Positions 21,739 through 31,836 of a DNA stretch of 64,000 nt are shown piece after piece. Below the pieces are notes generated by a model. It was not told the origin of the DNA. It saw only the letters and a list, made by a program, of their open reading frames with translations, and did no database searches. How positions within the stretch are numbered: position 1 is the first letter of the stretch; every line of letters begins with the position of its first letter. Origin of the DNA: Alphaproteobacteria bacterium (GTDB taxonomy: Bacteria > Pseudomonadota > Alphaproteobacteria > Rs-D84); the NCBI GenBank assembly GCA_015062485.1, contig SUUO01000002.1, positions 19,605 through 83,604 on the forward strand. Reading direction: 5' to 3'. The translations under genes were made by a program, and so were the position numbers.

Positions 21739-22587
21739 ATGAACGACCAACAAACAACACTTAAACAATGGCTGGTTAGCACGCCCATATTTTTTGCGCT
21801 TACATCATTTTTGTTTGCGGTTACATTATCTGTATTGGCGGGATTGTTGATGCCAAAATCCGAAACAACACTAAGCATAATCGGCACCGCAATGATTGTC
21901 ACAACCATAATATCTGGAATATTGGCAATTCGCCGGATTCCGACACACAAAATGGATCGCGCCGGCATCGTAACAATCTTTAATATAAAGATGATAATTT
22001 TGGTCCTGATGTCTGTGATATCACTGATTATGGCATTTAACCTGGTGCCGCTTCAAATGTGGTTATTGACCCTGATGCAGAACCCAACTGGTATTATCAT
22101 CGGATTCTTGCTAGCGGTGTGCTTGGTTCTGTTATCACTTTATATACTGGGGGTTACAATTATGGGATTTTGGGCGTGCTTCCTGCGTGCACGTACAATG
22201 AATATCCCACTTTGGAAAATTATTTGTTCCATCCCCTTTGGCTTTGATATGTTGTGGGTGCCGGGATATTTTATCCCCGCAAAGCAATCAAAGAAACCTG
22301 TTGTTGCCACAAATATAAAATGGATTTCAAACCTGACCGATTGGACATTTACTCGTTTATCTAATGCGGGATTTTTGTTCGCCGCCTTGATTATTGGAAC
22401 GGGCATATTTAACGGTCTTACAACAACGTTATTAAGTTTATCTATATTATTGCTGTTTGCGATATGGATAATGCAAATGGGCGATAAAAAATTCGAAAAG
22501 AACATTGGCAACACTTATGCAACAACCGCGGTAATTATCAATATCGTGATGATTGCATATATGATATTCACCATATGGATATTATAA
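21739..22587 (+). CDS. Polytopic membrane protein, hypothetical (occupies the usual sufD position)
   Basis: 282-aa ORF with 7-8 hydrophobic helices. No SufD-like sequence is present. Confidence 0.55.
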   Translation: MNDQQTTLKQWLVSTPIFFALTSFLFAVTLSVLAGLLMPKSETTLSIIGTAMIVTTIISGILAIRRIPTHKMDRAGIVTIFNIKMIILVLMSVISLIMAFNLVPLQMWLLTLMQNPTGIIIGFLLAVCLVLLSLYILGVTIMGFWACFLRARTMNIPLWKIICSIPFGFDMLWVPGYFIPAKQSKKPVVATNIKWISNLTDWTFTRLSNAGFLFAALIIGTGIFNGLTTTLLSLSILLLFAIWIMQMGDKKFEKNIGNTYATTAVIINIVMIAYMIFTIWIL

Positions 22588-22601: not shown

Positions 22602-23645
22602 ATGAATGGAATAATTGTATTTGGCATAATCTTGTTTACGCTTTGGATTGGGCGTTCAATATTTATCCCAATTCTGGTTGCGGCATTTTTGTGGTACCTG
22701 GTTAATGCGACATCAGAATATTTTCGTCGCGTATTTCCGCATCAAACACCACGAACACATCGCGACAAGATATATGACCTGGTATATGATTGCATATCGT
22801 ATGCGGTGTCATTATTGACAATATGCGGCATTGTTTATCTGTTCATAACCCAGGTAAAACCAATGTTCAGCGAACTGGCAACCGCCCTGCCCGCGATCCA
22901 GGACAAACTAATATCATTTGGCAATTATTTATCGGGCTCTGTTGGATTAAAGTTTGACGCAAATATGATTCCCAATATAACCAAGGTCGCGGCAAACATT
23001 GGCGCGTCTGCGGCGGGATTTGCAACATCAATTGGAATGGTTTTTGTTTATATGATATTTATGTTCATTGAACAAAGTACATTTAACAAAAAATTCACTG
23101 CCCTTATCCCGAACAAATCACGTGCAAAAAAGATGAGATATATCATCGACAGCATAGATAACAATATGAAAAAATATTTATTTATGAAGACGGTTATTTC
23201 CGGCATCACCGGCATTGTGTCATACCTTTGGTTGCAAATGATTGGATTGGAATTTGCGGGTGTCTGGGCATTTATTGTGTTCATCACCAGTTATATTCCA
23301 ACAATCGGCGCGATTGTTGCGTGCTCGTTACCAATACTGTATTCATTTACAGTGGCCCCCGGGTGGGAATTGCCATTATTAACCGCGGGTGGCCTGATTG
23401 GTTTACAGATACTGTTTGGTAATATTATGGAACCAAAACTGATGGGAAAAAGTTTAAACCTGTCTACATTGGCGATATTAATCAACCTGGTATTCTGGGG
23501 AATGATTTGGGGTATTGCCGGAATGTTTTTCAGCGTTCCAATCTTGGTTGGGATTTATATTGTCGCCGCCCAATTTGATTCAACACGTTGGATTGCGGTA
23601 CTATTATCCGCCGACGGAAAAATCCCAGATAAAAACGAAGATTAA
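22602..23645 (+). CDS. AI-2E family (PerM/YhhT-like) transporter
   Basis: Polytopic protein. The C-terminal region GLQILFGNIMEPKLMGKSLNLSTLAILINLVFWGMIWGIAGMFFSVPIL is typical of the family. Confidence 0.7.
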   Translation: MNGIIVFGIILFTLWIGRSIFIPILVAAFLWYLVNATSEYFRRVFPHQTPRTHRDKIYDLVYDCISYAVSLLTICGIVYLFITQVKPMFSELATALPAIQDKLISFGNYLSGSVGLKFDANMIPNITKVAANIGASAAGFATSIGMVFVYMIFMFIEQSTFNKKFTALIPNKSRAKKMRYIIDSIDNNMKKYLFMKTVISGITGIVSYLWLQMIGLEFAGVWAFIVFITSYIPTIGAIVACSLPILYSFTVAPGWELPLLTAGGLIGLQILFGNIMEPKLMGKSLNLSTLAILINLVFWGMIWGIAGMFFSVPILVGIYIVAAQFDSTRWIAVLLSADGKIPDKNED

Positions 23646-23664
23646 AAATCAATCTATACGCATA

Positions 23665-23692
23665 AAAACCGGGCTTTTTTTAAGCCCGGTTT
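23665..23692 (+). terminator. Intrinsic terminator (right arm overlaps the ruvX 3' end)
   Basis: AAAAACCGGGC-TTTTTTTAA-GCCCGGTTT. Confidence 0.55.
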
Positions 23693-24126
23693 ATTAATGC
23701 AATCGCGTTTTCCAATATCACACGTGCCGATTCCGAATCCAGTTTTTCTTTGATATCACGCACCCGCACACGCCCCATTGATTCCTGGGCCGAGACAGAT
23801 GTCAGATTTTCTTCGACCGTCACAATCGGCAAATCTGTTTTTTGCGACAATGCGTTTATAAATTCACGCACCATTTTTGTTGTATCACTTTCCGCGCCAT
23901 CGGGATACAATGGCAAACCAACAACAATTCCACACGCGCACTCATCAGACGCCATACGTGCAACAATTGCCGCCGCTTCATCATCCGCCCCCAGATTTAT
24001 CGTGGGACGCACAAAAACAAAGTTACGCGTATCATCCGACACCGCCACCCCAATGCGACGTGCCCCCCAATCAATACCAATTATGCGTCCCGAACGCGGA
24101 AAACCCTTGAAATCTGGCAAAATCAT
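23680..24126 (-). CDS. ruvX: Holliday junction resolvase-like RNase RuvX (YqgF)
   Basis: GRIIGIDWGARRIGVAVSD...VVGLPLYPDGAES is the YqgF fold signature. Confidence 0.85.
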   Translation of the reverse strand: MILPDFKGFPRSGRIIGIDWGARRIGVAVSDDTRNFVFVRPTINLGADDEAAAIVARMASDECACGIVVGLPLYPDGAESDTTKMVREFINALSQKTDLPIVTVEENLTSVSAQESMGRVRVRDIKEKLDSESARVILENAIALINRA

Positions 24127-24157
24127 TGTATAATTCCTTTACTTTGTAAATATAGGA

Positions 24158-24460
24158 TTGAAAATGGCATTTAGCAAGCAACAATTACAAAAATTCGCAG
24201 ATTTAATCAAAATCGAAATTACGGACGAAAAACTGGCCGAAATGAATATCGATTCGGTCGTTGAATGGCTGGATAAATTACAAAAAATTGACACAACCGG
24301 TGTTGAACCAATGTTAAACCCGGCCGAACACAAATTACCACGTCGCGCCGATGTTGTAACCGATGGCAACATTCGCGATTTGGTTTTGGCCAACACTCCG
24401 GATAACGCCGGCACATCACGTGGATATTTCGCGGTTCCAAAGGTTATGGATGGAGACTAA
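24158..24460 (+). CDS. gatC: Glutamyl/aspartyl-tRNA amidotransferase subunit C
   Basis: 100-aa protein with ...LAEMNIDSVVEWLDKLQKIDTTGVEPM... and the C-terminal FAVPKV motif. Confidence 0.9.
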   Translation: MKMAFSKQQLQKFADLIKIEITDEKLAEMNIDSVVEWLDKLQKIDTTGVEPMLNPAEHKLPRRADVVTDGNIRDLVLANTPDNAGTSRGYFAVPKVMDGD

Positions 24461-24470
24461 AGGATCAATT

Positions 24471-24749
24471 ATGCAACGTACAATATCAAAACAACTTGCA
24501 ATAACATATCTGGACAACCGTCTGAACAAATGCGATTCTGCAATCGCAACAATGCAGTTGGAGTCATATTACACAAACGATGAGCCACCACTTAAAATCG
24601 GCGCGATAAACCCAGTTACACGTCAATATGCACACGGTATCGGCGACACCGTTGATGTCGAACCACGCATTCTTGTGAATTACGGATGTTTGTTAACCAA
24701 TGTCATTCGCTCTGAATTCCTAGAAAATTATATCCGCAGCCAAAGATAG
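24471..24749 (+). CDS. Hypothetical 92-aa protein inserted in the gat operon
   Basis: ATG lies 7 nt after an AAAGGA RBS and 10 nt after the gatC stop. No motif was recognised. Confidence 0.5.
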   Translation: MQRTISKQLAITYLDNRLNKCDSAIATMQLESYYTNDEPPLKIGAINPVTRQYAHGIGDTVDVEPRILVNYGCLLTNVIRSEFLENYIRSQR

Positions 24750-24754
24750 AAACA

Positions 24755-25252
24755 ATGACTGACCCAAAGCAAACGATTGCTGTAAATTTTGTAGAATATG
24801 AACAGTACGAACATTTCCCAAACCACGTTCAAACATTGGGGTATGTCAGCATTGCAGATGCACTTAAATTGATGGACATATTCGCCAATCCACGACAGTC
24901 TGCATTCTTAGGTCTAATTCAGAATTCACCGAAATTACAAGAATTATTGCAACACGACAATGTTGCCCCAAACGCCTGCATCAAAACACTAAGTATGCAA
25001 TTCAATGACCAGGTTCACTTTGGTAATATACCCGGGGCGGGCAATCGTTATCGTTCATTGGATATTGATGGCTTGTTCTATCTAGACACAAATCCGCAAT
25101 GTGCAACAAAAACAAACACCAGGAAATGGACCGACAAAAAGAAACTACTATGTTGTGCACGCAATTTACGTGCTGGCAAATGTACTGACGAGTTTATAAA
25201 AAATACATTGGGCGCAATCCTGTACCCACAACATTATGGAAAGCAAAAATAA
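24755..25252 (+). CDS. Hypothetical 165-aa protein with conserved Cys/His C-terminal module (...CTDEFIKNTLGAILYPQHYGKQK)
   Basis: Starts 5 nt after the upstream stop. The C-terminal 35 aa are paralogous to the next ORF. Confidence 0.55.
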   Translation: MTDPKQTIAVNFVEYEQYEHFPNHVQTLGYVSIADALKLMDIFANPRQSAFLGLIQNSPKLQELLQHDNVAPNACIKTLSMQFNDQVHFGNIPGAGNRYRSLDIDGLFYLDTNPQCATKTNTRKWTDKKKLLCCARNLRAGKCTDEFIKNTLGAILYPQHYGKQK

Positions 25253-25264
25253 AGGAACCCCGTA

Positions 25265-25648
25265 ATGGAACATAAATATAGAGTGAAACTTGTGTCTCTG
25301 TACGAATATACAAGATCACCACAAACCAGTATCACCGAAACACAATTACACGCAATGGCGAAACAAATTGCTGCGCAATCGGTATTACCATCGGACTGTT
25401 GTTGGGGGGAAATACTTGCGTTTTTTAATATAGGTTATTCAATGCATACAAGCACAAGTAAAACCCCTACACCAAAAACATCTATCCGCAAGACACCTAC
25501 GTATCGTTGTGACTTAGTCTTTCATCAAGACAATCGTAAATGTACATCCTGTTTTGAATCTTTATCCCACGGCAGATGCAGTGACAAATTTGTACGCAAC
25601 ACATTGGGTACTGTGTTATATCCGCAACATTATGAAAAACAAAAGTAA
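25265..25648 (+). CDS. Hypothetical 127-aa protein, paralog of the preceding ORF (...CSDKFVRNTLGTVLYPQHYEKQK)
   Basis: AAAGGA RBS. Shares C-x2-C-x8-C-[ST]-D-x-F-[IV]-x-N-T-L-G-x2-L-Y-P-Q-H-Y-x-K-Q-K with ORF 24755-25252. Confidence 0.55.
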   Translation: MEHKYRVKLVSLYEYTRSPQTSITETQLHAMAKQIAAQSVLPSDCCWGEILAFFNIGYSMHTSTSKTPTPKTSIRKTPTYRCDLVFHQDNRKCTSCFESLSHGRCSDKFVRNTLGTVLYPQHYEKQK

Positions 25649-25660
25649 AAGAAGAGAAAA

Positions 25661-27127
25661 ATGATTAACCTTACACTTACCGAAGCATTAAAGAAATTAA
25701 ACAGTGGCGAAATTAGTGCCGTGGAATTAACACGTGCGTATCTGGACCGTATTGAAAAATATGGTGCGGATTTAAATTGCTATATCACCACAACACCGGA
25801 ACGTGCGCTTGCCGATGCGGCGGCGTCCGATGCGCGGCGTGCTGCGGGCGATGCAAAATTCTTGGACGGCGCCCCAATCGCAATGAAGGATTTATTTGCC
25901 ACACGCGGTATCCGCACAACGGCGGCATCGCGTATGCTGGAAAACTTTGTCCCCGAATACGAATCGACTGTTTCCCAGAAATTTATTGATGCGGGTACAG
26001 TATTACTGGGCAAGGCAAACCTGGACGAATTCGCAATGGGCACATTTAGTAAGACCAGTTTCTTTGGTGCACCCGTCAACCCATGGCAAATGGAAAATCG
26101 TTTAACCGCCGGCGGTTCATCGGGTGGTTCTACATCGGCCGTGGCTGGGGGATTGGCGATTGCGGCGACTGGTACCGACACGGGCGGTTCAATTCGTTTC
26201 CCGGCCGCAATCACCGGTATGGTTGGAATGAAACCAACATATGGTCTGTGTTCACGTTGGGGATGTGTTGCATTTGCGTCCAGCCTTGACACACCGGGGC
26301 CAATTGCACGCACGGTTGACGATGCCGCATTAATGTTGTCCGCTATGGCGGGCCACGACCCAAAAGATTCAACAAGCAGCAAACACGGTTTTGCCTGCAC
26401 CGCGCCACTGGAACCTGTATTGGGCAATGGGAAAAAATTACGCGTCGGCATTATCCGCGAATTCAAAGACGTTAAAATTTCAGATGATATGAAAACGTTA
26501 TTTGAAAAACGCATCAGCGATTTAAAATCGATGGGCGCCGAAATTGTTGAGGTTTCAATTCCAAACATCTTGGATGCATTGGCGGCATATTATATTATTG
26601 CCCCGGCCGAGGCCTCATCCAACTTGGCCCGTTATGACGGTATGCGTTATGGCCTGCGGGTCGAGGGACGCGACATTTACGATACATTCAAAAAATCACG
26701 CGCCGCCGGCTTTGGCGACGAGGTTAAACGCCGTATGATTATCGGCACCGCCGTATTAAGCAGCCAATCTTATGATGTATACTTTATGCAGGCCGCCCGC
26801 GTTCGTCGTATGATTTCAGACAGCTTTAACAAAGCATTCACAGAATGCGATTTAATCATATGCCCATCCAGTGCCGGCACGGCAATGCCATTGGATTCTG
26901 GATTATTACCATTGGAATTCTATGCATTGGATTTATTCACGGTTGCGATGAACCTGGCGGGGGTACCTGCGTGCAGTGTACCAGCGGGCTTGTCCACAAA
27001 TGGTCTGCCCCTGGGGATTCAGGTTGTGGGAAATCGCTTTGACGATATGCGTGTTCTGCAACTGGCAAAACATATTGAAACCGCGGCCGCAATTGACAAC
27101 CGCCCAACAACAATTATGGGGAAATAA
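25661..27127 (+). CDS. gatA: Glutamyl-tRNA(Gln) amidotransferase subunit A
   Basis: Amidase signature (GGSSGGSTSAVAGG..GTDTGGSIRFPAA) and the catalytic Lys region (PIAMKDLF). Confidence 0.95.
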   Translation: MINLTLTEALKKLNSGEISAVELTRAYLDRIEKYGADLNCYITTTPERALADAAASDARRAAGDAKFLDGAPIAMKDLFATRGIRTTAASRMLENFVPEYESTVSQKFIDAGTVLLGKANLDEFAMGTFSKTSFFGAPVNPWQMENRLTAGGSSGGSTSAVAGGLAIAATGTDTGGSIRFPAAITGMVGMKPTYGLCSRWGCVAFASSLDTPGPIARTVDDAALMLSAMAGHDPKDSTSSKHGFACTAPLEPVLGNGKKLRVGIIREFKDVKISDDMKTLFEKRISDLKSMGAEIVEVSIPNILDALAAYYIIAPAEASSNLARYDGMRYGLRVEGRDIYDTFKKSRAAGFGDEVKRRMIIGTAVLSSQSYDVYFMQAARVRRMISDSFNKAFTECDLIICPSSAGTAMPLDSGLLPLEFYALDLFTVAMNLAGVPACSVPAGLSTNGLPLGIQVVGNRFDDMRVLQLAKHIETAAAIDNRPTTIMGK

Positions 27128-27130
27128 TAT

Positions 27131-28411
27131 ATGAAAAAAAACGCATTGGATTTTTCATATACACTGTCACCAGCCCAGCGTCAAGAAATCGACGAGTTGC
27201 TAAAACAGCACTCGCCCGAGGAAATCTTGACCTCATTGGTAGACAGGCCTATTGACCCAAAAACGGAACAAATTATAAAAGCCGATAAAAATTCATATGC
27301 ATTCTGGGGTCCTGAAACATCCAAACTGGTACGGACCCCCGAAACACTATTTTTACCAATGTCATTTGAAGCATTCAAAATCAGTGGCGCATCTGAATTA
27401 AATTTTAAACACCCATCTGCGAAATTTGCATCCCTAGAACTGGCGATGTCCGCATTGACCATTGCAAAATGGTCCGAAGAATTAAATCTGAAAGAGTTCT
27501 TTCTAAAAAACGCTAATTTTTCAAGCAAACATCGCTGGCCACACACCTGTAATATTGATTTTTCATACACACCCAATATGACTACCGAAGACAAAATATC
27601 AAAAATCATCAGTCATATGTGCCAAATAAATTCTGATGCAATGCTGGTATGGACAAATCCTGGACTTGGTTGGGTTGCGCGAAAAAAACTGGATTTAGAA
27701 CCAATATTTTACGCATTTGGTCGAAAATTCTTTCATTTTACAGACCCAAAAACAGGTGAAACACAAACACTAAGCACCGGTGCAAGTGACGAAGCAGAAC
27801 AAAAGATTGCAAGTTGGAACGCACAAAACCCAAATATGCAATTACAACAAACATTCCATATCGGAATGCCTATCACACGTGAAATTCGTATTTTCACACT
27901 TGGTGGTGAAATTGTTGGTTTCGTACCATATTGGACACCCATTGCATTTAAAAATCAAAACGTATATGGACTGGACAAAGATATAACCCTGGATGCCGCG
28001 TTAAAGCGTATGAACACATTTACACAAGATGAATTAAATTATCTGCACAACGAAACAAAAAAGATAATCCAACACCCAAAATTCCACGACACAGATTGGG
28101 CAATTGATTGGATTATTACACGCGACAAAATATGGTATATGACAGATATGCAAGTTGCTCAACAATCATATATGGATTATGACAATATGATTTTTGCATC
28201 AGATACAGGTCGCACGCGTGTTCATCAATTTTTGAATCAGCAACTTGAATCTATGCGACACGCACAAAAAAATTTATCTCTATTTGATAAAATAGTGCTA
28301 AAATTAACAGGCGCATCAACTGACATTGATAAAAATCTGAAACGTTCTGGTTATCCAAGTCAGAAACAAATAATTAAATTAAACCAACAAATTGGAACGA
28401 AACAAAAATGA
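27131..28411 (+). CDS. Hypothetical 426-aa protein, possible ATP-grasp-like fold
   Basis: GGGGA RBS 3 nt after the gatA stop. Segments LQQTFHIGMPITREIRIFTLGGEIVGFVPYW and DWAIDWIITRDKIWYMTDMQVAQQS resemble ATP-grasp C-domain strands. This is a weak, motif-level call. The protein ends ...GTKQK. Confidence 0.5.
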   Translation: MKKNALDFSYTLSPAQRQEIDELLKQHSPEEILTSLVDRPIDPKTEQIIKADKNSYAFWGPETSKLVRTPETLFLPMSFEAFKISGASELNFKHPSAKFASLELAMSALTIAKWSEELNLKEFFLKNANFSSKHRWPHTCNIDFSYTPNMTTEDKISKIISHMCQINSDAMLVWTNPGLGWVARKKLDLEPIFYAFGRKFFHFTDPKTGETQTLSTGASDEAEQKIASWNAQNPNMQLQQTFHIGMPITREIRIFTLGGEIVGFVPYWTPIAFKNQNVYGLDKDITLDAALKRMNTFTQDELNYLHNETKKIIQHPKFHDTDWAIDWIITRDKIWYMTDMQVAQQSYMDYDNMIFASDTGRTRVHQFLNQQLESMRHAQKNLSLFDKIVLKLTGASTDIDKNLKRSGYPSQKQIIKLNQQIGTKQK

Positions 28412-28447
28412 AAAACGCGTTAGAAATTTTGGTTAGAGTAAAAAAAA

Positions 28448-28523
28448 TGGTGGCTAGGGACGGAATCGAACCGCCGACACAGGGATTTTCAGTCCCTTGC
28501 TCTACCAACTGAGCTACCTAGCC
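28448..28523 (-). tRNA. tRNA-Phe (GAA), CCA encoded
   Basis: The minus strand GGCTAGGTAGCTCAGTTGGTAGAGCAAGGGACTGAAAATCCCTGTGTCGGCGGTTCGATTCCGTCCCTAGCCACCA folds into a canonical cloverleaf with anticodon loop CTGAAAA. Confidence 0.95.
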
Positions 28524-28578
28524 AACGCGGGACAAATAATAAGATACTAAAAACAAAAAAGCAAGGGAAAAAGAAACA

Positions 28579-30099
28579 ATGTTTACAATAAAAGGCAAAA
28601 CGTGTGATTGGGAACTGGTAATTGGACTTGAAACACATATCGAAGTACTGTCCAATTCTAAATTATTTAGTGGCGCATCCGCCGACTATAATCCAACCGT
28701 TTCACCCAACACCCAGGTTTCAATGGTTGACGTTGCAATGCCCGGTATGTTGCCGGTATTAAATGAATATTGCGTTGAACAGGCTATCAAGTTCGGCCTG
28801 GGGATAAACGCCGAGATTTCACGCCACAGTCGTTTTGCACGTAAACAGTATTTTTACCCTGACCTGCCCCAGGGGTATCAGATTTCACAACCCGCCGACG
28901 AACCGCCCGTTGTCGGTCGCGGCTGGGTTGAAATTATGGGCGACGACGGTAACCCCAAGAAGATATTTATTGAACGTGCACATTTGGAACAAGATGCCGG
29001 TAAATTAAAGCACGATGTTCACCCATCAAAATCCTTTGCGGACTATAACCGTACGGGTGTTGCCCTGCTTGAAATTGTGACATTCCTGGACGTAAAAAAT
29101 CCAGAAAACAATTCATATATCTCATCCCCAGACGAGGCCGAACGCTATCTGCGTGAAATTCGTGAAATTGCACGCGCCCTGGGCGTATCACGCGCAAATA
29201 TGGAAGAAGGCTCTATGCGTGCCGACGTAAATGTATCGGTTCGTCCGGTGGGTTCAACCGAATTCCGCACCCGCACAGAAACAAAAAATATGGTTTCATT
29301 TAAATTCATTAAATCCGCCATTGAATACGAGGCCCGTCGTCAAATCGAGGCATACGAAAACGGTGGCACCGTCACCCAGGATACAATGCGCTATAACCAG
29401 GGCGACGGCACTACATCCGTAATGCGCAGCAAAGAAGACGCCCTGGACTATCGTTATTTTCCAGATCCTGACTTGTTACCGGTGGAAATTGACGACGAAA
29501 CAATTGAACGCATTCGCGCGAACCTGCCGGAATTACCATCCGCAACACGCGCGCGCTATACGCACGATTTCGGGCTGTCTGAATATGACGCGGCGCGCCT
29601 GACCGAAACAACGGATATCTCGCATTGGTATGATACGGCCGTTGCCGGCAACGCAACCCGTGCCAAGGGGGTTGCCAACTGGATGATAAGTGAATTATTC
29701 GCACACCCTGAAAACTGGGATGTAAAAAACGAAAAATCTGGTGTTGTAGATGAAATGCGTATCATCACGCCATCTGATTTGGCCGAACTGGTTGATATGT
29801 TGGGCGAAAACACAATTAACGGCAAACAGGCCAAAGAAATATTTATCAAAATGTTAGACGGCGAATCCGGCACACCACGTGAAATCGCAGATAAATTCGG
29901 TATGAAACAAATGACCGACACGGGCGCGATAGAATCAATCGTTGACGAAGTAATCGCCAAAAACCCGGCCCAGGTTGAACAGTATAAATCTGGCAAGGTT
30001 GGATTGCTGGGCTTCTTTGTTGGCAATGTGATGAAAGCAACCGGTGGCACCGCAAATCCAGCCGTTGTAAATGAAATCTTGCGAAATAAACTGGCATAA
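28579..30099 (+). CDS. gatB: Glutamyl/aspartyl-tRNA amidotransferase subunit B
   Basis: WELVIGLETHIEV..., ...YFYPDLPQGYQISQ... and a C-terminal YqeY-like tail (GKVGLLGFFVGNVMKATGGTANP). Confidence 0.95.
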   Translation: MFTIKGKTCDWELVIGLETHIEVLSNSKLFSGASADYNPTVSPNTQVSMVDVAMPGMLPVLNEYCVEQAIKFGLGINAEISRHSRFARKQYFYPDLPQGYQISQPADEPPVVGRGWVEIMGDDGNPKKIFIERAHLEQDAGKLKHDVHPSKSFADYNRTGVALLEIVTFLDVKNPENNSYISSPDEAERYLREIREIARALGVSRANMEEGSMRADVNVSVRPVGSTEFRTRTETKNMVSFKFIKSAIEYEARRQIEAYENGGTVTQDTMRYNQGDGTTSVMRSKEDALDYRYFPDPDLLPVEIDDETIERIRANLPELPSATRARYTHDFGLSEYDAARLTETTDISHWYDTAVAGNATRAKGVANWMISELFAHPENWDVKNEKSGVVDEMRIITPSDLAELVDMLGENTINGKQAKEIFIKMLDGESGTPREIADKFGMKQMTDTGAIESIVDEVIAKNPAQVEQYKSGKVGLLGFFVGNVMKATGGTANPAVVNEILRNKLA

Positions 30100-30101
30100 C
30101 A

Positions 30102-30320
30102 ATGACAATAGAAGATTTGGCAAAACAATTAATAGAATGCAGAGGACTTGAATTGTACAGACTATTGCAGATATTAAAAGAAATGAGAACAGATGAGGCT
30201 CGCGCCAAGGTACGCGCCCGCGAACGTGAATACGCCGCTAAACAGGCTTGGCGCAAATGCAATGCAAAATATCGCCAAATTCAGCATCAATTTAAACACA
30301 CACATACGAAAAAAATATAA
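30102..30320 (+). CDS. Small basic hypothetical protein (72 aa)
   Basis: ORF starts 2 nt after the gatB stop. No clear RBS, and coding status is uncertain. Confidence 0.3.
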   Translation: MTIEDLAKQLIECRGLELYRLLQILKEMRTDEARAKVRAREREYAAKQAWRKCNAKYRQIQHQFKHTHTKKI

Positions 30321-30340
30321 ACCAAAAAAAGGGGTAAATT

Positions 30341-30523
30341 ATGTCTAAAAAAAATACACGAAACGTAATTGTTGCAACAACAGATCCAATCTTGGGAACG
30401 ACATACAAAACACAACCTGTTGCAACCATATCCGAAGACATCGTACACGCACAAAAACAATATAAAAACATCAAAACACAGCAAACACACAAAGTACGCG
30501 GTGAACGCACTAAAAACAAATAA
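30341..30523 (+). CDS. Small basic hypothetical protein (60 aa)
   Basis: Good AAGGGG RBS 7 nt upstream. The ORF ends 2 nt before miaB. Confidence 0.4.
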   Translation: MSKKNTRNVIVATTDPILGTTYKTQPVATISEDIVHAQKQYKNIKTQQTHKVRGERTKNK

Positions 30524-30525
30524 TA

Positions 30526-31836
30526 ATGCCAATGAAAAAATTCTTTATTCAAACATTTGGTTGCCAAATGAACGTCTATGACGGATGGCGTATTGCAACA
30601 ATGCTGGAACACCACGGTTTCGTGCGTACAGACGACGTTTCCGACGCCGACATAATCATTCTGAATACGTGTGCTGTTCGTGCGAAAGCCACCGACAAAG
30701 TCTATTCCGCCCTGGGCCGCATCAGACGTGCAAAAAAGCCATCTGCACTGATGGGAATCGTCGGATGCGTTGCCCGCGAATCGGGGGCCGATGCTTTTCG
30801 ACGTGTACCCGATTTGAATTTTGTTTTGGGGCCGCAATCCTATCACAAATTACCGGAAATTCTTAATAACCCAGATGCCAAATTATTGAATATCGATTTG
30901 GGTGGCCTGGAAAAATTTGATTCCCTGCCCCAGATGGTGAAATCACCAACTGTTTCATATATTCCAATCCAAGAGGGCTGCAATCATTGTTGCACATACT
31001 GTATCGTTCCATACACACGTGGCCGCGAAATATCACGCAAATTTGAAGACTGTGTACGTGATACAATTCACGCCGCCAAAACAGGTGCGGTGGAAATTTG
31101 TTTCCTGGGGCAAAATGTAAATGGTTATAAATACACCGATGAAAACGGACACACATATCGCCTGTCGGATCTTATACAAGAAGCCGCAAAAATCCCGGAA
31201 ATAATGCGTATACGCTTTACATCCAGTTATCCAACTGAAATGACAGATGACCTGATTGAAATGTTTCGAACAGAGCCCAAGTTATTGCCATTTTTAAATA
31301 TGCCAATCCAAAGTGGCGCCCCCGACGTTCTGAAACGCATGAACCGCCCCTATGATTTGGATCAATATTTAACCATTATTAAAAAATTACGCTGTGCGCG
31401 TTCTGACATTCAAATCTCGTCTGATTTTATTGTTGGGTTTCCCGGCGAAACCGATTCGGATTTTGAACAAACGGTCGATATTGCAAAACGTGTTGGATAT
31501 ATCAATTCATACTGTTTCAAGTATTCACCGCGTCCACATACCGCCGCCGCCATTATGCCAGATCAAATCCCAGAAAATATTAAATCAGATCGCCTGGCAA
31601 TCCTGGACACGACATTAAATGAAATCCAACGCGCCTTTAACGAAAGTTGCGTGGGCAAAACACTATCCTGTCTGTGCGAAGGGGTCGATAAAACGGGCCG
31701 TCATTTGGTCTATCGCACGCCATATATGCAGCAATGCATTGTTGCCCGCCCCGACACGGGCGATGCGCCAACATTGGCCAACATTGAAATTACCGCCGCA
31801 AACAAGGCATCCCTGCGTGGTAAAATTGCTAAATAA
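30526..31836 (+). CDS. miaB: tRNA-i6A37 methylthiotransferase MiaB
   Basis: N-terminal UPF0004 Cys triad (FGCQMN..NTCAVR..GC), radical-SAM motif (CNHCCTYCIVP) and a C-terminal TRAM domain. Confidence 0.9.
   Translation: MPMKKFFIQTFGCQMNVYDGWRIATMLEHHGFVRTDDVSDADIIILNTCAVRAKATDKVYSALGRIRRAKKPSALMGIVGCVARESGADAFRRVPDLNFVLGPQSYHKLPEILNNPDAKLLNIDLGGLEKFDSLPQMVKSPTVSYIPIQEGCNHCCTYCIVPYTRGREISRKFEDCVRDTIHAAKTGAVEICFLGQNVNGYKYTDENGHTYRLSDLIQEAAKIPEIMRIRFTSSYPTEMTDDLIEMFRTEPKLLPFLNMPIQSGAPDVLKRMNRPYDLDQYLTIIKKLRCARSDIQISSDFIVGFPGETDSDFEQTVDIAKRVGYINSYCFKYSPRPHTAAAIMPDQIPENIKSDRLAILDTTLNEIQRAFNESCVGKTLSCLCEGVDKTGRHLVYRTPYMQQCIVARPDTGDAPTLANIEITAANKASLRGKIAK

Follow-up and report, generated by a model that had tools for sequence, protein, structure and literature searches.

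Gene content and layout of the gatCAB locus

The GatCAB amidotransferase is essential in most bacteria, and to our knowledge no dedicated accessory factors for it are known. Here we describe a 64,000-nucleotide stretch of alphaproteobacterial DNA (contig SUUO01000002.1, hereafter the window) in which gatC, gatA and gatB are separated by four additional open-reading frames (ORF1 to ORF4) and an antisense tRNA gene. An earlier note on this DNA had given the order as gatC, three ORFs of 92, 165 and 127 aa, gatA, a 426-aa ORF starting 3 nt further on, an antisense tRNA-Phe and gatB, and this order was confirmed by the ORF list and the sequence together with two tRNA finders. On the forward strand, gatC (24158-24460; Pfam GatC, 5.4e-12; TIGR00135, 63.9 bits vs. 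a cut-off of 47.1) is followed by ORF1 (24471-24749, 92 aa, assigned to a small-protein family B), ORF2 (24755-25252, 165 aa, small-protein family A), ORF3 (25265-25648, 127 aa, a second family A paralogue), gatA (25661-27127; Pfam Amidase, 1.6e-136; TIGR00132, 511.2 bits vs. 481.1) and ORF4 (27131-28411, 426 aa, a divergent ATP-grasp protein of the R2K clade). A tRNA-Phe(GAA) gene with an encoded CCA end (28448-28523; ARAGORN and Rfam, 73 bits) lies on the reverse strand, antisense to the gat genes, and is followed by gatB on the forward strand (28579-30099; Pfam GatB_N, 5.3e-101, and GatB_Yqey, 3.2e-43; NF004015, 636.1 bits vs. 628). As GatC, GatA and GatB all score above their NCBIfam equivalog cut-offs, the three belong to the gatCAB amidotransferase families. 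Two further clade-specific ORFs on the same strand (30102-30320, 72 aa, and 30341-30523, 60 aa), overlooked by the earlier note, similarly fill the junction between gatB and a miaB-like radical SAM gene (30526-31836, forward strand), whose orthologues match Pfam UPF0004 and Radical_SAM at each locus. The gatC start is called at a TTG (24158); translation probably begins at the ATG at 24164, which would give 98 aa, like the 97-98 aa of relatives.

The intergenic gaps from gatC to ORF4 measure 10, 5, 12, 12 and 3 nt, and TAAAGGA stands ahead of ORF1 and ORF3. A promoter-like site 5' of gatC (24107-24134, forward strand; TTGAAA-16 nt-TATAAT, 11/12 matches) is the sole strong sigma-70-type match within 23600-30600 and, as a consensus match, a candidate promoter; no convincing internal promoter or terminator was seen in the same interval, and the totals of promoter-like and terminator-like matches are not above those of shuffled sequence. 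Because this site precedes gatC and none convincing lies inside the block, we infer as plausible that gatC through ORF4 are co-transcribed from the gatC promoter. In relatives, 4-nt overlaps occur at the ORF1/ORF2 and ORF2/gatA junctions (locus L013) and between a family A gene and gatA (L023), which fits translational coupling. The co-transcription and coupling that the earlier note had supposed thus gain support from the promoter-like site and the overlaps, with co-transcription itself read from these signals. Since no gatB promoter was detected, gatB may be expressed through read-through past the antisense tRNA-Phe. The 55-nt spacer between the tRNA-Phe 5' end and gatB (28524-28578) is highly conserved in the window, L001 and L006, and its minus strand contains a plausible tRNA promoter, read by eye (TTGCTT-17 nt-TATTAT). 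An Rfam scan of the window returned two tRNAs only; the operon gave no match to a leader, riboswitch or T-box.

The inserted reading frames behave as genes

Each inserted ORF has homologues in public data. ORF4 has 27 full-length homologue clusters (40-100% identity), ORF2 has 43 (38-98% identity, nearly all spanning the whole protein) and ORF1 has 19 (63-98% identity, almost all of 92 aa), whilst ORF3 falls in a cluster of 11 members at 90% identity, found on as many as 16 contigs, with copies in the same-species contigs L017-L020 and none in L013. All carry the public name "hypothetical protein [Alphaproteobacteria bacterium]" and come from metagenome-assembled genomes (MAGs), several of them from ruminant gut assemblies. 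Ratios of nonsynonymous to synonymous substitution rates (dN/dS, Nei-Gojobori) between the window and L013 were 0.116 for ORF1, 0.102 for ORF2 and 0.138 for ORF4, compared with 0.069 for gatC and 0.066 for gatA; for ORF3 the ratio against L017 was 0.19, which rests on few substitutions, and for the gatB|miaB small ORFs it was 0.15 against L013. Homologue clusters and substitution ratios together show, at the level of sequence comparison, that all four inserted ORFs are real genes under purifying selection. The earlier note had allowed that a dN/dS near 1 would argue against them, and at 0.10-0.19 its view of real, tightly packed genes holds.

Base composition and rate of change set some of these genes apart from their neighbours. 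GC content at third codon positions (GC3) is 0.307 in ORF4, 0.312 in ORF3 and 0.373 in ORF2, vs. 0.481 in gatA, 0.471 in gatB and a mean of 0.431 (sd 0.039) in 18 other large genes. ORF4 is 40-47% identical across loci, vs. mostly 75-87% for gatA and gatB (54% for gatA of L007), and by this measure evolves far faster than its neighbours, with about three times the divergence of the Gat proteins. Compared with the near-identical strains L017-L020, synonymous divergence (dS) within 24164-30099 of the window is strongly mosaic (gatC 0.29, ORF1 0.016, ORF2 0.11, ORF3 0.05, gatA 0.08, ORF4 0.008, gatB 0.06), which suggests recombination between strains inside the operon.

ORF4 is a divergent R2K-clade ATP-grasp protein

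The AlphaFold2 model of ORF4, built from a 26-sequence alignment, reached a mean predicted local distance difference test score (pLDDT) of 86.5 and a predicted template-modelling score (pTM) of 0.83, and it has the RAGNYA and kinase-like domains of the ATP-grasp fold. In a Foldseek search of the Protein Data Bank (PDB), the best 50 matches listed were all ATP-grasp proteins, including all 34 at E <= 1e-3; they comprised D-Ala-D-Ala ligase (Ddl), succinyl-CoA synthetase beta, PurK, DcsG, ArgX and Cdc123, and the best template-modelling scores (TM-scores) among the PDB matches listed were to human Cdc123 (0.35/0.47-0.49). In BFVD the top matches were a haloarchaeal virus ATP-grasp protein, giant-virus Cdc123 and tubulin-tyrosine-ligase-like proteins. 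Sequence searches were less telling: the ORF4 profile (A1) gave chance-level matches only against PDB sequences, and ORF4 gave sub-threshold matches only in the NCBIfam, Pfam and PHROGs libraries.

A profile search of 1.84 billion representative proteins returned 629 matches. Five full-length representative clusters came from this clade, and the other matches listed were mostly proteins of ~250-285 aa covering the ORF4 core. Five of ten scanned ~260-aa relatives reached the gathering score of Pfam R2K_3 (26.5-32.1 bits), with phrog_12834 also matched, and hhalign aligned ORF4 with these relatives over 232 columns at 100% probability (E=7.7e-50). Relative to them ORF4 carries three additions, an N-terminal stretch of ~46 aa, an internal one of ~40 aa (~198-243) and a helical C-terminal one of ~70 aa. 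The ~260-aa relatives include phage-encoded members (Fusobacterium phage phiFN37 and Clostridium phage Maintenon); ORF4 itself had no tblastn match in 50,697 phage records.

The R2K clade comprises CDC123/R2K.1, R2K.2 and R2K.3 (Burroughs, Zhang and Aravind 2015, PMC4431377), and ORF4 shares with it, beside the ATP-grasp fold, most of the defining residues. K126, K133, E251, R253, D326, D339 and Q341 are invariant. K126 ends a predicted strand (122-127), the second lysine, K133, follows seven residues on in the loop NANFSSKHRWP, where H134 and R135 are likewise invariant, and the loop lacks the ssxGbGl motif, as the R2K definition requires. Further on, the E..R pair (E251, R253) and the strand aspartate D326 (strand 323-329) are present, and the last strand (335-342) carries the acidic D339 in D339-M-Q341 rather than ExN, with D-M-A in the relatives; the same definition allows the Asn of the ExN motif to be exchanged at times for other polar residues (PMC4431377). 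Neither of the named families accommodates ORF4: it scores 12.7 bits against the 26.3-bit gathering score of Pfam PF14243 (R2K_3), its final strand reads TDMQ (IDMA[E/L/D] in the relatives) where R2K.3 has ExGD, and for CDC123/R2K.1 there was no Pfam D123 match at E <= 1. Because most R2K features are present, the final motif is a variant and the R2K_3 score falls short, we file ORF4, on sequence and model, as a divergent R2K-clade ATP-grasp protein nearest the R2K_3-like group and as a member of neither R2K.3 nor CDC123. The three additions are specific to the host clade and set ORF4 apart from the R2K clade. Like R2K.2 and R2K.3, the wider family of ORF4 is sporadic and partly phage-borne; unlike them, ORF4 is fixed in a housekeeping operon and inherited vertically. 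The earlier note, which could name no homologue for any inserted ORF, was mistaken in this case.

Cdc123 is an R2K ATP-grasp protein that assembles eIF2 via eIF2-gamma. Besides the best TM-scores among solved structures (PDB 8phd, 8phv), ORF4 shares with this eIF2 assembly factor the spacing of its metal ligands, D-x13-D-x-polar (D233/D246xN248 in the human protein, D326/D339xQ341 in ORF4), and an association with a translation-related system. It differs in having no detectable sequence similarity to Cdc123, and any partner of ORF4 would be bacterial and is putative. The nucleotide- and metal-binding residues of ORF4 are intact and the protein is presumably catalytically competent. By analogy with its relatives, it most likely binds ATP and is either a ligase that attaches an amino acid or peptide to a target protein (or to another carboxylate or amine target) or a Cdc123-like ATP-dependent assembly factor.

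Small-protein families between gatC and gatA

ORF2 and ORF3 are similar over the C-terminal ~39 aa only (54% identity, E=5e-15) and by this similarity are paralogues in a new small-protein family, family A, in which the N-terminal beta/alpha part is variable and a two-helix C-terminal hairpin is conserved. The hidden Markov model (HMM) of the C-terminal part has the motif C-x(2-5)-C-x8-GKC-x-D-x-F-x4-LG-x2-L-[YF]-P-Q-x-Y-x-KQK; ORF3 scores 75 bits against it, and the ORF2 hairpin ends in LYPQHYGKQK. In the window and nine related loci the HMM found 15 members, all 15 of them between gatC and gatA, and nothing significant outside this gap in the 64-kb window or the flanks of the nine loci. When three more loci were added, the 30 ORFs of the gap were classed as 21 family A, three family B, five family C (190-215 aa, absent from the window) and one orphan. 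ORF1 belongs to family B, whose alignment (A3) has 70% mean column identity, and a 40%-identical copy of it occupies the same gap in L001.

In the ORF2 orthologue group C75, C116, C134, C143, G141, D145 and P158 are invariant. The AlphaFold2 model of ORF2 (pLDDT 71.6, moderate) shows two beta-hairpins, helices and the C-terminal two-helix hairpin and matched no PDB fold (best E=0.63); since a model of moderate confidence matches no known fold, ORF2 is left without a fold assignment. The 42 ORF2-family members hit no consistent Pfam family, and their profile (A2) gave chance-level matches only against PDB sequences. ORF1-3 had no match in NCBIfam or PADLOC and chance-level matches only in Pfam and PHROGs (E=0.065-0.31); these include Pfam DZR for ORF3 (E=0.071, 13.7 bits vs. 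a cut-off of 27.3) and, for ORF1, a single PHROG match (E=0.31) and none in Pfam. We considered and rejected the idea that ORF1-3 are GatC paralogues, as they have no similarity to GatC.

Short basic tails (KQK, KTK, TKHK, KNK) end almost all clade-specific proteins of the block and not their housekeeping neighbours. In the window they are found in ORF2 (25240-25252), ORF3 (25636-25648), ORF4 (28397-28411) and the second gatB|miaB ORF (30509-30523). The shared tails could be a signal, for example for targeting or turnover, or mere composition.

Synteny and history of the insertions

We compared 15 distinct loci from a small, uncultured clade of Alphaproteobacteria of the gut and rumen; each genome lacking ORF4 is represented by only ~12 kb. 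Their common order is sufBD-sufC, a membrane ORF present or absent, an AI-2E transporter gene, ruvX (reverse strand) and gatC, then zero to four small ORFs, gatA, ORF4 or nothing, tRNA-Phe (reverse strand), gatB, one or two small ORFs and miaB. The inserted ORFs are conserved and clade-specific. ORF4 occurs in all major subgroups, always 1-13 nt past the gatA stop. It is missing at the locus in L014 (from GCA_046882065.1), L016 (from GCA_052847215.1) and L023, where gatA and the tRNA are 35-186 nt apart and tblastn found no ORF4 remnant; the GatA and GatB proteins of these three genomes are ~88-91% identical to those of the window. The same three have small gatC|gatA ORFs without ORF4, and L005, L007 and L008 have ORF4 without any small ORFs in that gap. 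Because ORF4 and the small ORFs come and go independently, they look like separate long-term passengers, and the single four-ORF module proposed in the earlier note gives way to at least two independent gene sets.

The ORF4 tree gives the same groups as the tree of gatB plus miaB, and L014, L016 and L023 nest within the window's own subclade. Since the trees are congruent and the ORF4-lacking loci are nested, the phylogenies indicate that ORF4 was vertically inherited, with two or three losses from the operon. In midpoint-rooted trees L005 and L008 are deepest, whilst the position of L007 depends on the genes used, and the small-ORF array probably grew after the arrival of ORF4.

Other junctions of the block vary in the same manner. 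Between gatB and miaB each locus carries one or two clade-specific small ORFs, the miaB orthologues being 68-92% identical across loci, and an ORF of 282-315 aa is variably present between sufC and the AI-2E transporter gene. In the window the latter is a hydrophobic, membrane-like ORF of 282 aa (21739-22587), present in most loci and absent from L001 and L005. One family of gatB|miaB ORFs has an N-terminal "..ITG..Y" motif (MKIIGI..N.PITGV.YG in several loci). The second gatB|miaB ORF of the window (30341-30523) is 39% identical to that of L017-L019 (L017:11579-11749; 60 vs. 56 aa), the L013 copy is 82% identical and the adjacent gatB protein is 100% identical to that of L017-L019; the divergence looks like an allele swap.

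Some records in the comparison are irregular. The gatA of L007 (5425-6987) encodes ~520 aa, 54% identical to that of the window, beside a gatB that is 84% identical, and it may have been replaced or be unusually divergent. In L013 (9484-11004) gatB is called as two ORFs of 99 and 371 aa, a frameshift pseudogene or an assembly error. L008 and L009 (equivalent to L005) are titled "uncultured Muribaculaceae bacterium" and have the alphaproteobacterial gene order of the other loci; these MAGs have probably been mislabelled or mis-binned. Over the whole window (1-64000) the GC skew is negative nearly throughout (cumulative -10.8), and, the gat block apart, the minus strand carries most of the large ORFs.

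The antisense tRNA-Phe and the insertion site

Because the antisense tRNA-Phe is found in all fifteen loci, at the same position and on the same strand, with or without ORF4, we regard it as an old feature of the operon and no part of the insertion. Its 3' side, which faces ORF4, bears traces of past events in relatives. Partial duplicates of the tRNA-Phe 3' half lie beside the intact gene on this side in L001 (10056-10143, one copy) and L012 (5211-5325, one copy), whilst L006 (8380-8626) has two within a ~120-nt tandem repeat, and unrelated extra ORFs occupy the 3' side in L001 (225 aa) and L010 (153 aa). These duplicates look like leftover attachment sites from integration, and together with the unrelated ORFs they mark the tRNA-Phe 3' side as an insertion hot spot like those exploited by integrases that target tRNA genes. 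In the window itself the tRNA-Phe 3' 25-mer has no second copy with up to three mismatches, and no integrase-sized unassigned ORF lies between gatC and miaB. A tRNA-targeted genomic island in the window was rejected, as there is neither an attachment-like repeat nor an integrase.

Probable long-resident accessory genes in a housekeeping operon

We favour, with moderate confidence, the reading that the inserted ORFs are long-resident, vertically inherited accessory genes in a housekeeping operon, made up of a divergent R2K ATP-grasp enzyme and a separately evolving array of small cysteine-containing proteins, and we infer that they are passengers with respect to Gat function. ORF4 would have been acquired once, in or before the ancestor of the clade, between gatA and the antisense tRNA-Phe (at its 3' end), then passed on vertically within 1-13 nt of the gatA stop and cleanly lost at least two or three times. 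The gatC|gatA array (zero to four genes, with family A dominant and families B and C also present) would have arisen later by local duplication and divergence. The inserted genes, as two or more independent sets of passengers, would be expressed from the operon yet be no part of the amidotransferase. No GatA or GatB alignment column separates ORF4-lacking from ORF4-bearing genomes across the whole clade, and the GatA C-terminus and the GatB N-terminus are unaltered by the presence or absence of ORF4; co-adaptation of GatA or GatB with ORF4 was rejected, there being no specific substitutions. At the locus we found no mobility genes, no defence matches and no Gat co-adaptation.

There is some precedent for such tolerance. 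That gatC, gatA and gatB are contiguous, which the earlier note took as the norm, is only a tendency: PMC8406222 (citing Akochy et al. 2012) places the beta-lactamase gene bro-1 of Moraxella catarrhalis between gatA and gatB. Like ORF4, bro-1 is an unrelated accessory gene that a gatCAB operon tolerates between gatA and gatB. Unlike ORF4, which is old and clade-wide and leaves GatA unchanged, bro-1 is recent and strain-variable, and it alters the GatA C-terminus.

Several points weigh against the passenger reading. ORF1 and ORF2, with dN/dS of ~0.10 near the 0.069 of gatC, do not evolve within the subclade as dispensable genes would. Family A genes are confined to the position just after gatC, often overlapping gatA by 4 nt, and wherever ORF4 is present it lies 1-13 nt from the gatA stop; true subunits, or partners produced in a fixed ratio to the Gat proteins, would be expected to show this exclusive position and tight spacing too. 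The absence of ORF4 from L014, L016 and L023 is known for ~12 kb of each and so applies at the level of the operon, and an ancestral gatA-tRNA-Phe-gatB arrangement without ORF4 is assumed.

In a doubtful alternative, the inserted genes would have a genuine accessory role in tRNA-dependent amidation or translation, with ORF4 as an ATP-dependent assembly factor or modifier for GatCAB or a bound partner and families A and B as extra small GatC-like subunits or regulators. Conserved, exclusive positions with spacings of 1-13 nt or 4-nt overlaps would suit such a role, as would the confinement of family A to the gatC|gatA gap in the window and the nine loci scanned, purifying selection on ORF1 and ORF2 comparable to that on gatC, and the Cdc123 resemblance (best TM-scores of 0.35/0.47-0.49; giant-virus Cdc123 in BFVD). 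However, ORF4 is absent from the operon in three genomes and family A in three others, no GatA or GatB substitution correlates with ORF4, the small ORFs vary in copy number from zero to four and lack similarity to GatC, and ORF4 diverges about three times faster than the Gat proteins; a literature search, moreover, gave no paper linking GatCAB with ATP-grasp proteins. We think it unlikely that, more specifically, a Cdc123-like R2K protein was recruited to assemble the GatCAB transamidosome (or some other translation component encoded in the operon) with the use of ATP, or to modify it covalently, with families A and B as lineage-specific subunits or regulators, a proposal that draws on gene position and fold resemblance.

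It is quite unlikely that ORF4 and family A form an enzyme-substrate pair, in which the ligase would extend or activate the conserved C-terminal tail in the manner of RimK-S6, LysX/ArgX-LysW or tubulin-tyrosine ligase. R2K ATP-grasp proteins have been predicted to be protein-peptide ligases (PMC4431377), ArgX of the LysW system and tubulin-tyrosine ligase are among the fold matches of ORF4, the family A tail is strictly conserved and ORF4 itself ends in a similar ...GYP.Q...KQK tail. As in LysX/ArgX-LysW, RimK-S6 and graspetides, moreover, an ATP-grasp gene shares one putative transcription unit with small Cys proteins that have a conserved C-terminal tail. The tails here are basic (KQK, KTK or KGK ends), whereas those of S6 and LysW are acidic, ending in Glu; the proteins are folded and of 92-170 aa rather than short precursors; and the strict co-occurrence of enzyme and substrate expected of such a pair is broken in six loci (L005, L007 and L008 vs. 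L014, L016 and L023). The ~260-aa relatives of ORF4, for their part, have no family A neighbours. A graspetide or other system for ribosomally synthesised and post-translationally modified peptides (RiPPs) was rejected, the small proteins being too large, folded and decoupled from ORF4.

The suggestion that the inserted ORFs make up a selfish element, as the earlier note had put it, or a recently mobile one (an island, prophage remnant, toxin-antitoxin or defence cassette) exploiting operon expression is very improbable: the low GC3 of ORF2-4, the partial tRNA-Phe duplicates that point to integrase activity at this tRNA in relatives, the distant ORF4 relatives in phages (phrog_12834, phiFN37, Maintenon) and the dissimilar extra ORFs at the site in L001 and L010 are outweighed by a window without integrase, transposase, repeat boundary or second tRNA 3' half, by the lack of any PADLOC match for ORF1-4 at E <= 1 with weak PHROGs matches only, by an ORF4 without a phage match whose tree agrees with that of gatB plus miaB and which is vertically inherited across the clade, and by purifying selection (dN/dS 0.10-0.19).

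If the embedded genes do act on GatCAB, they would reveal a new level at which the fidelity of translation or the provision of Asn- and Gln-tRNA is controlled, and would provide the first bacterial target for the poorly understood R2K ATP-grasp clade. Were the Cdc123-like reading true, the locus would offer a prokaryotic parallel to Cdc123 and eIF2 and the first accessory factors for tRNA-dependent amidation. If the genes are passengers, as we think likelier, the locus would be a clean natural case of gene birth, duplication and loss at the junctions of an essential operon. The locus also yields two or three small-protein families, uncharacterised so far, and a divergent subfamily of ATP-grasp proteins, all at present annotated just as "hypothetical protein" in gut and rumen MAGs.

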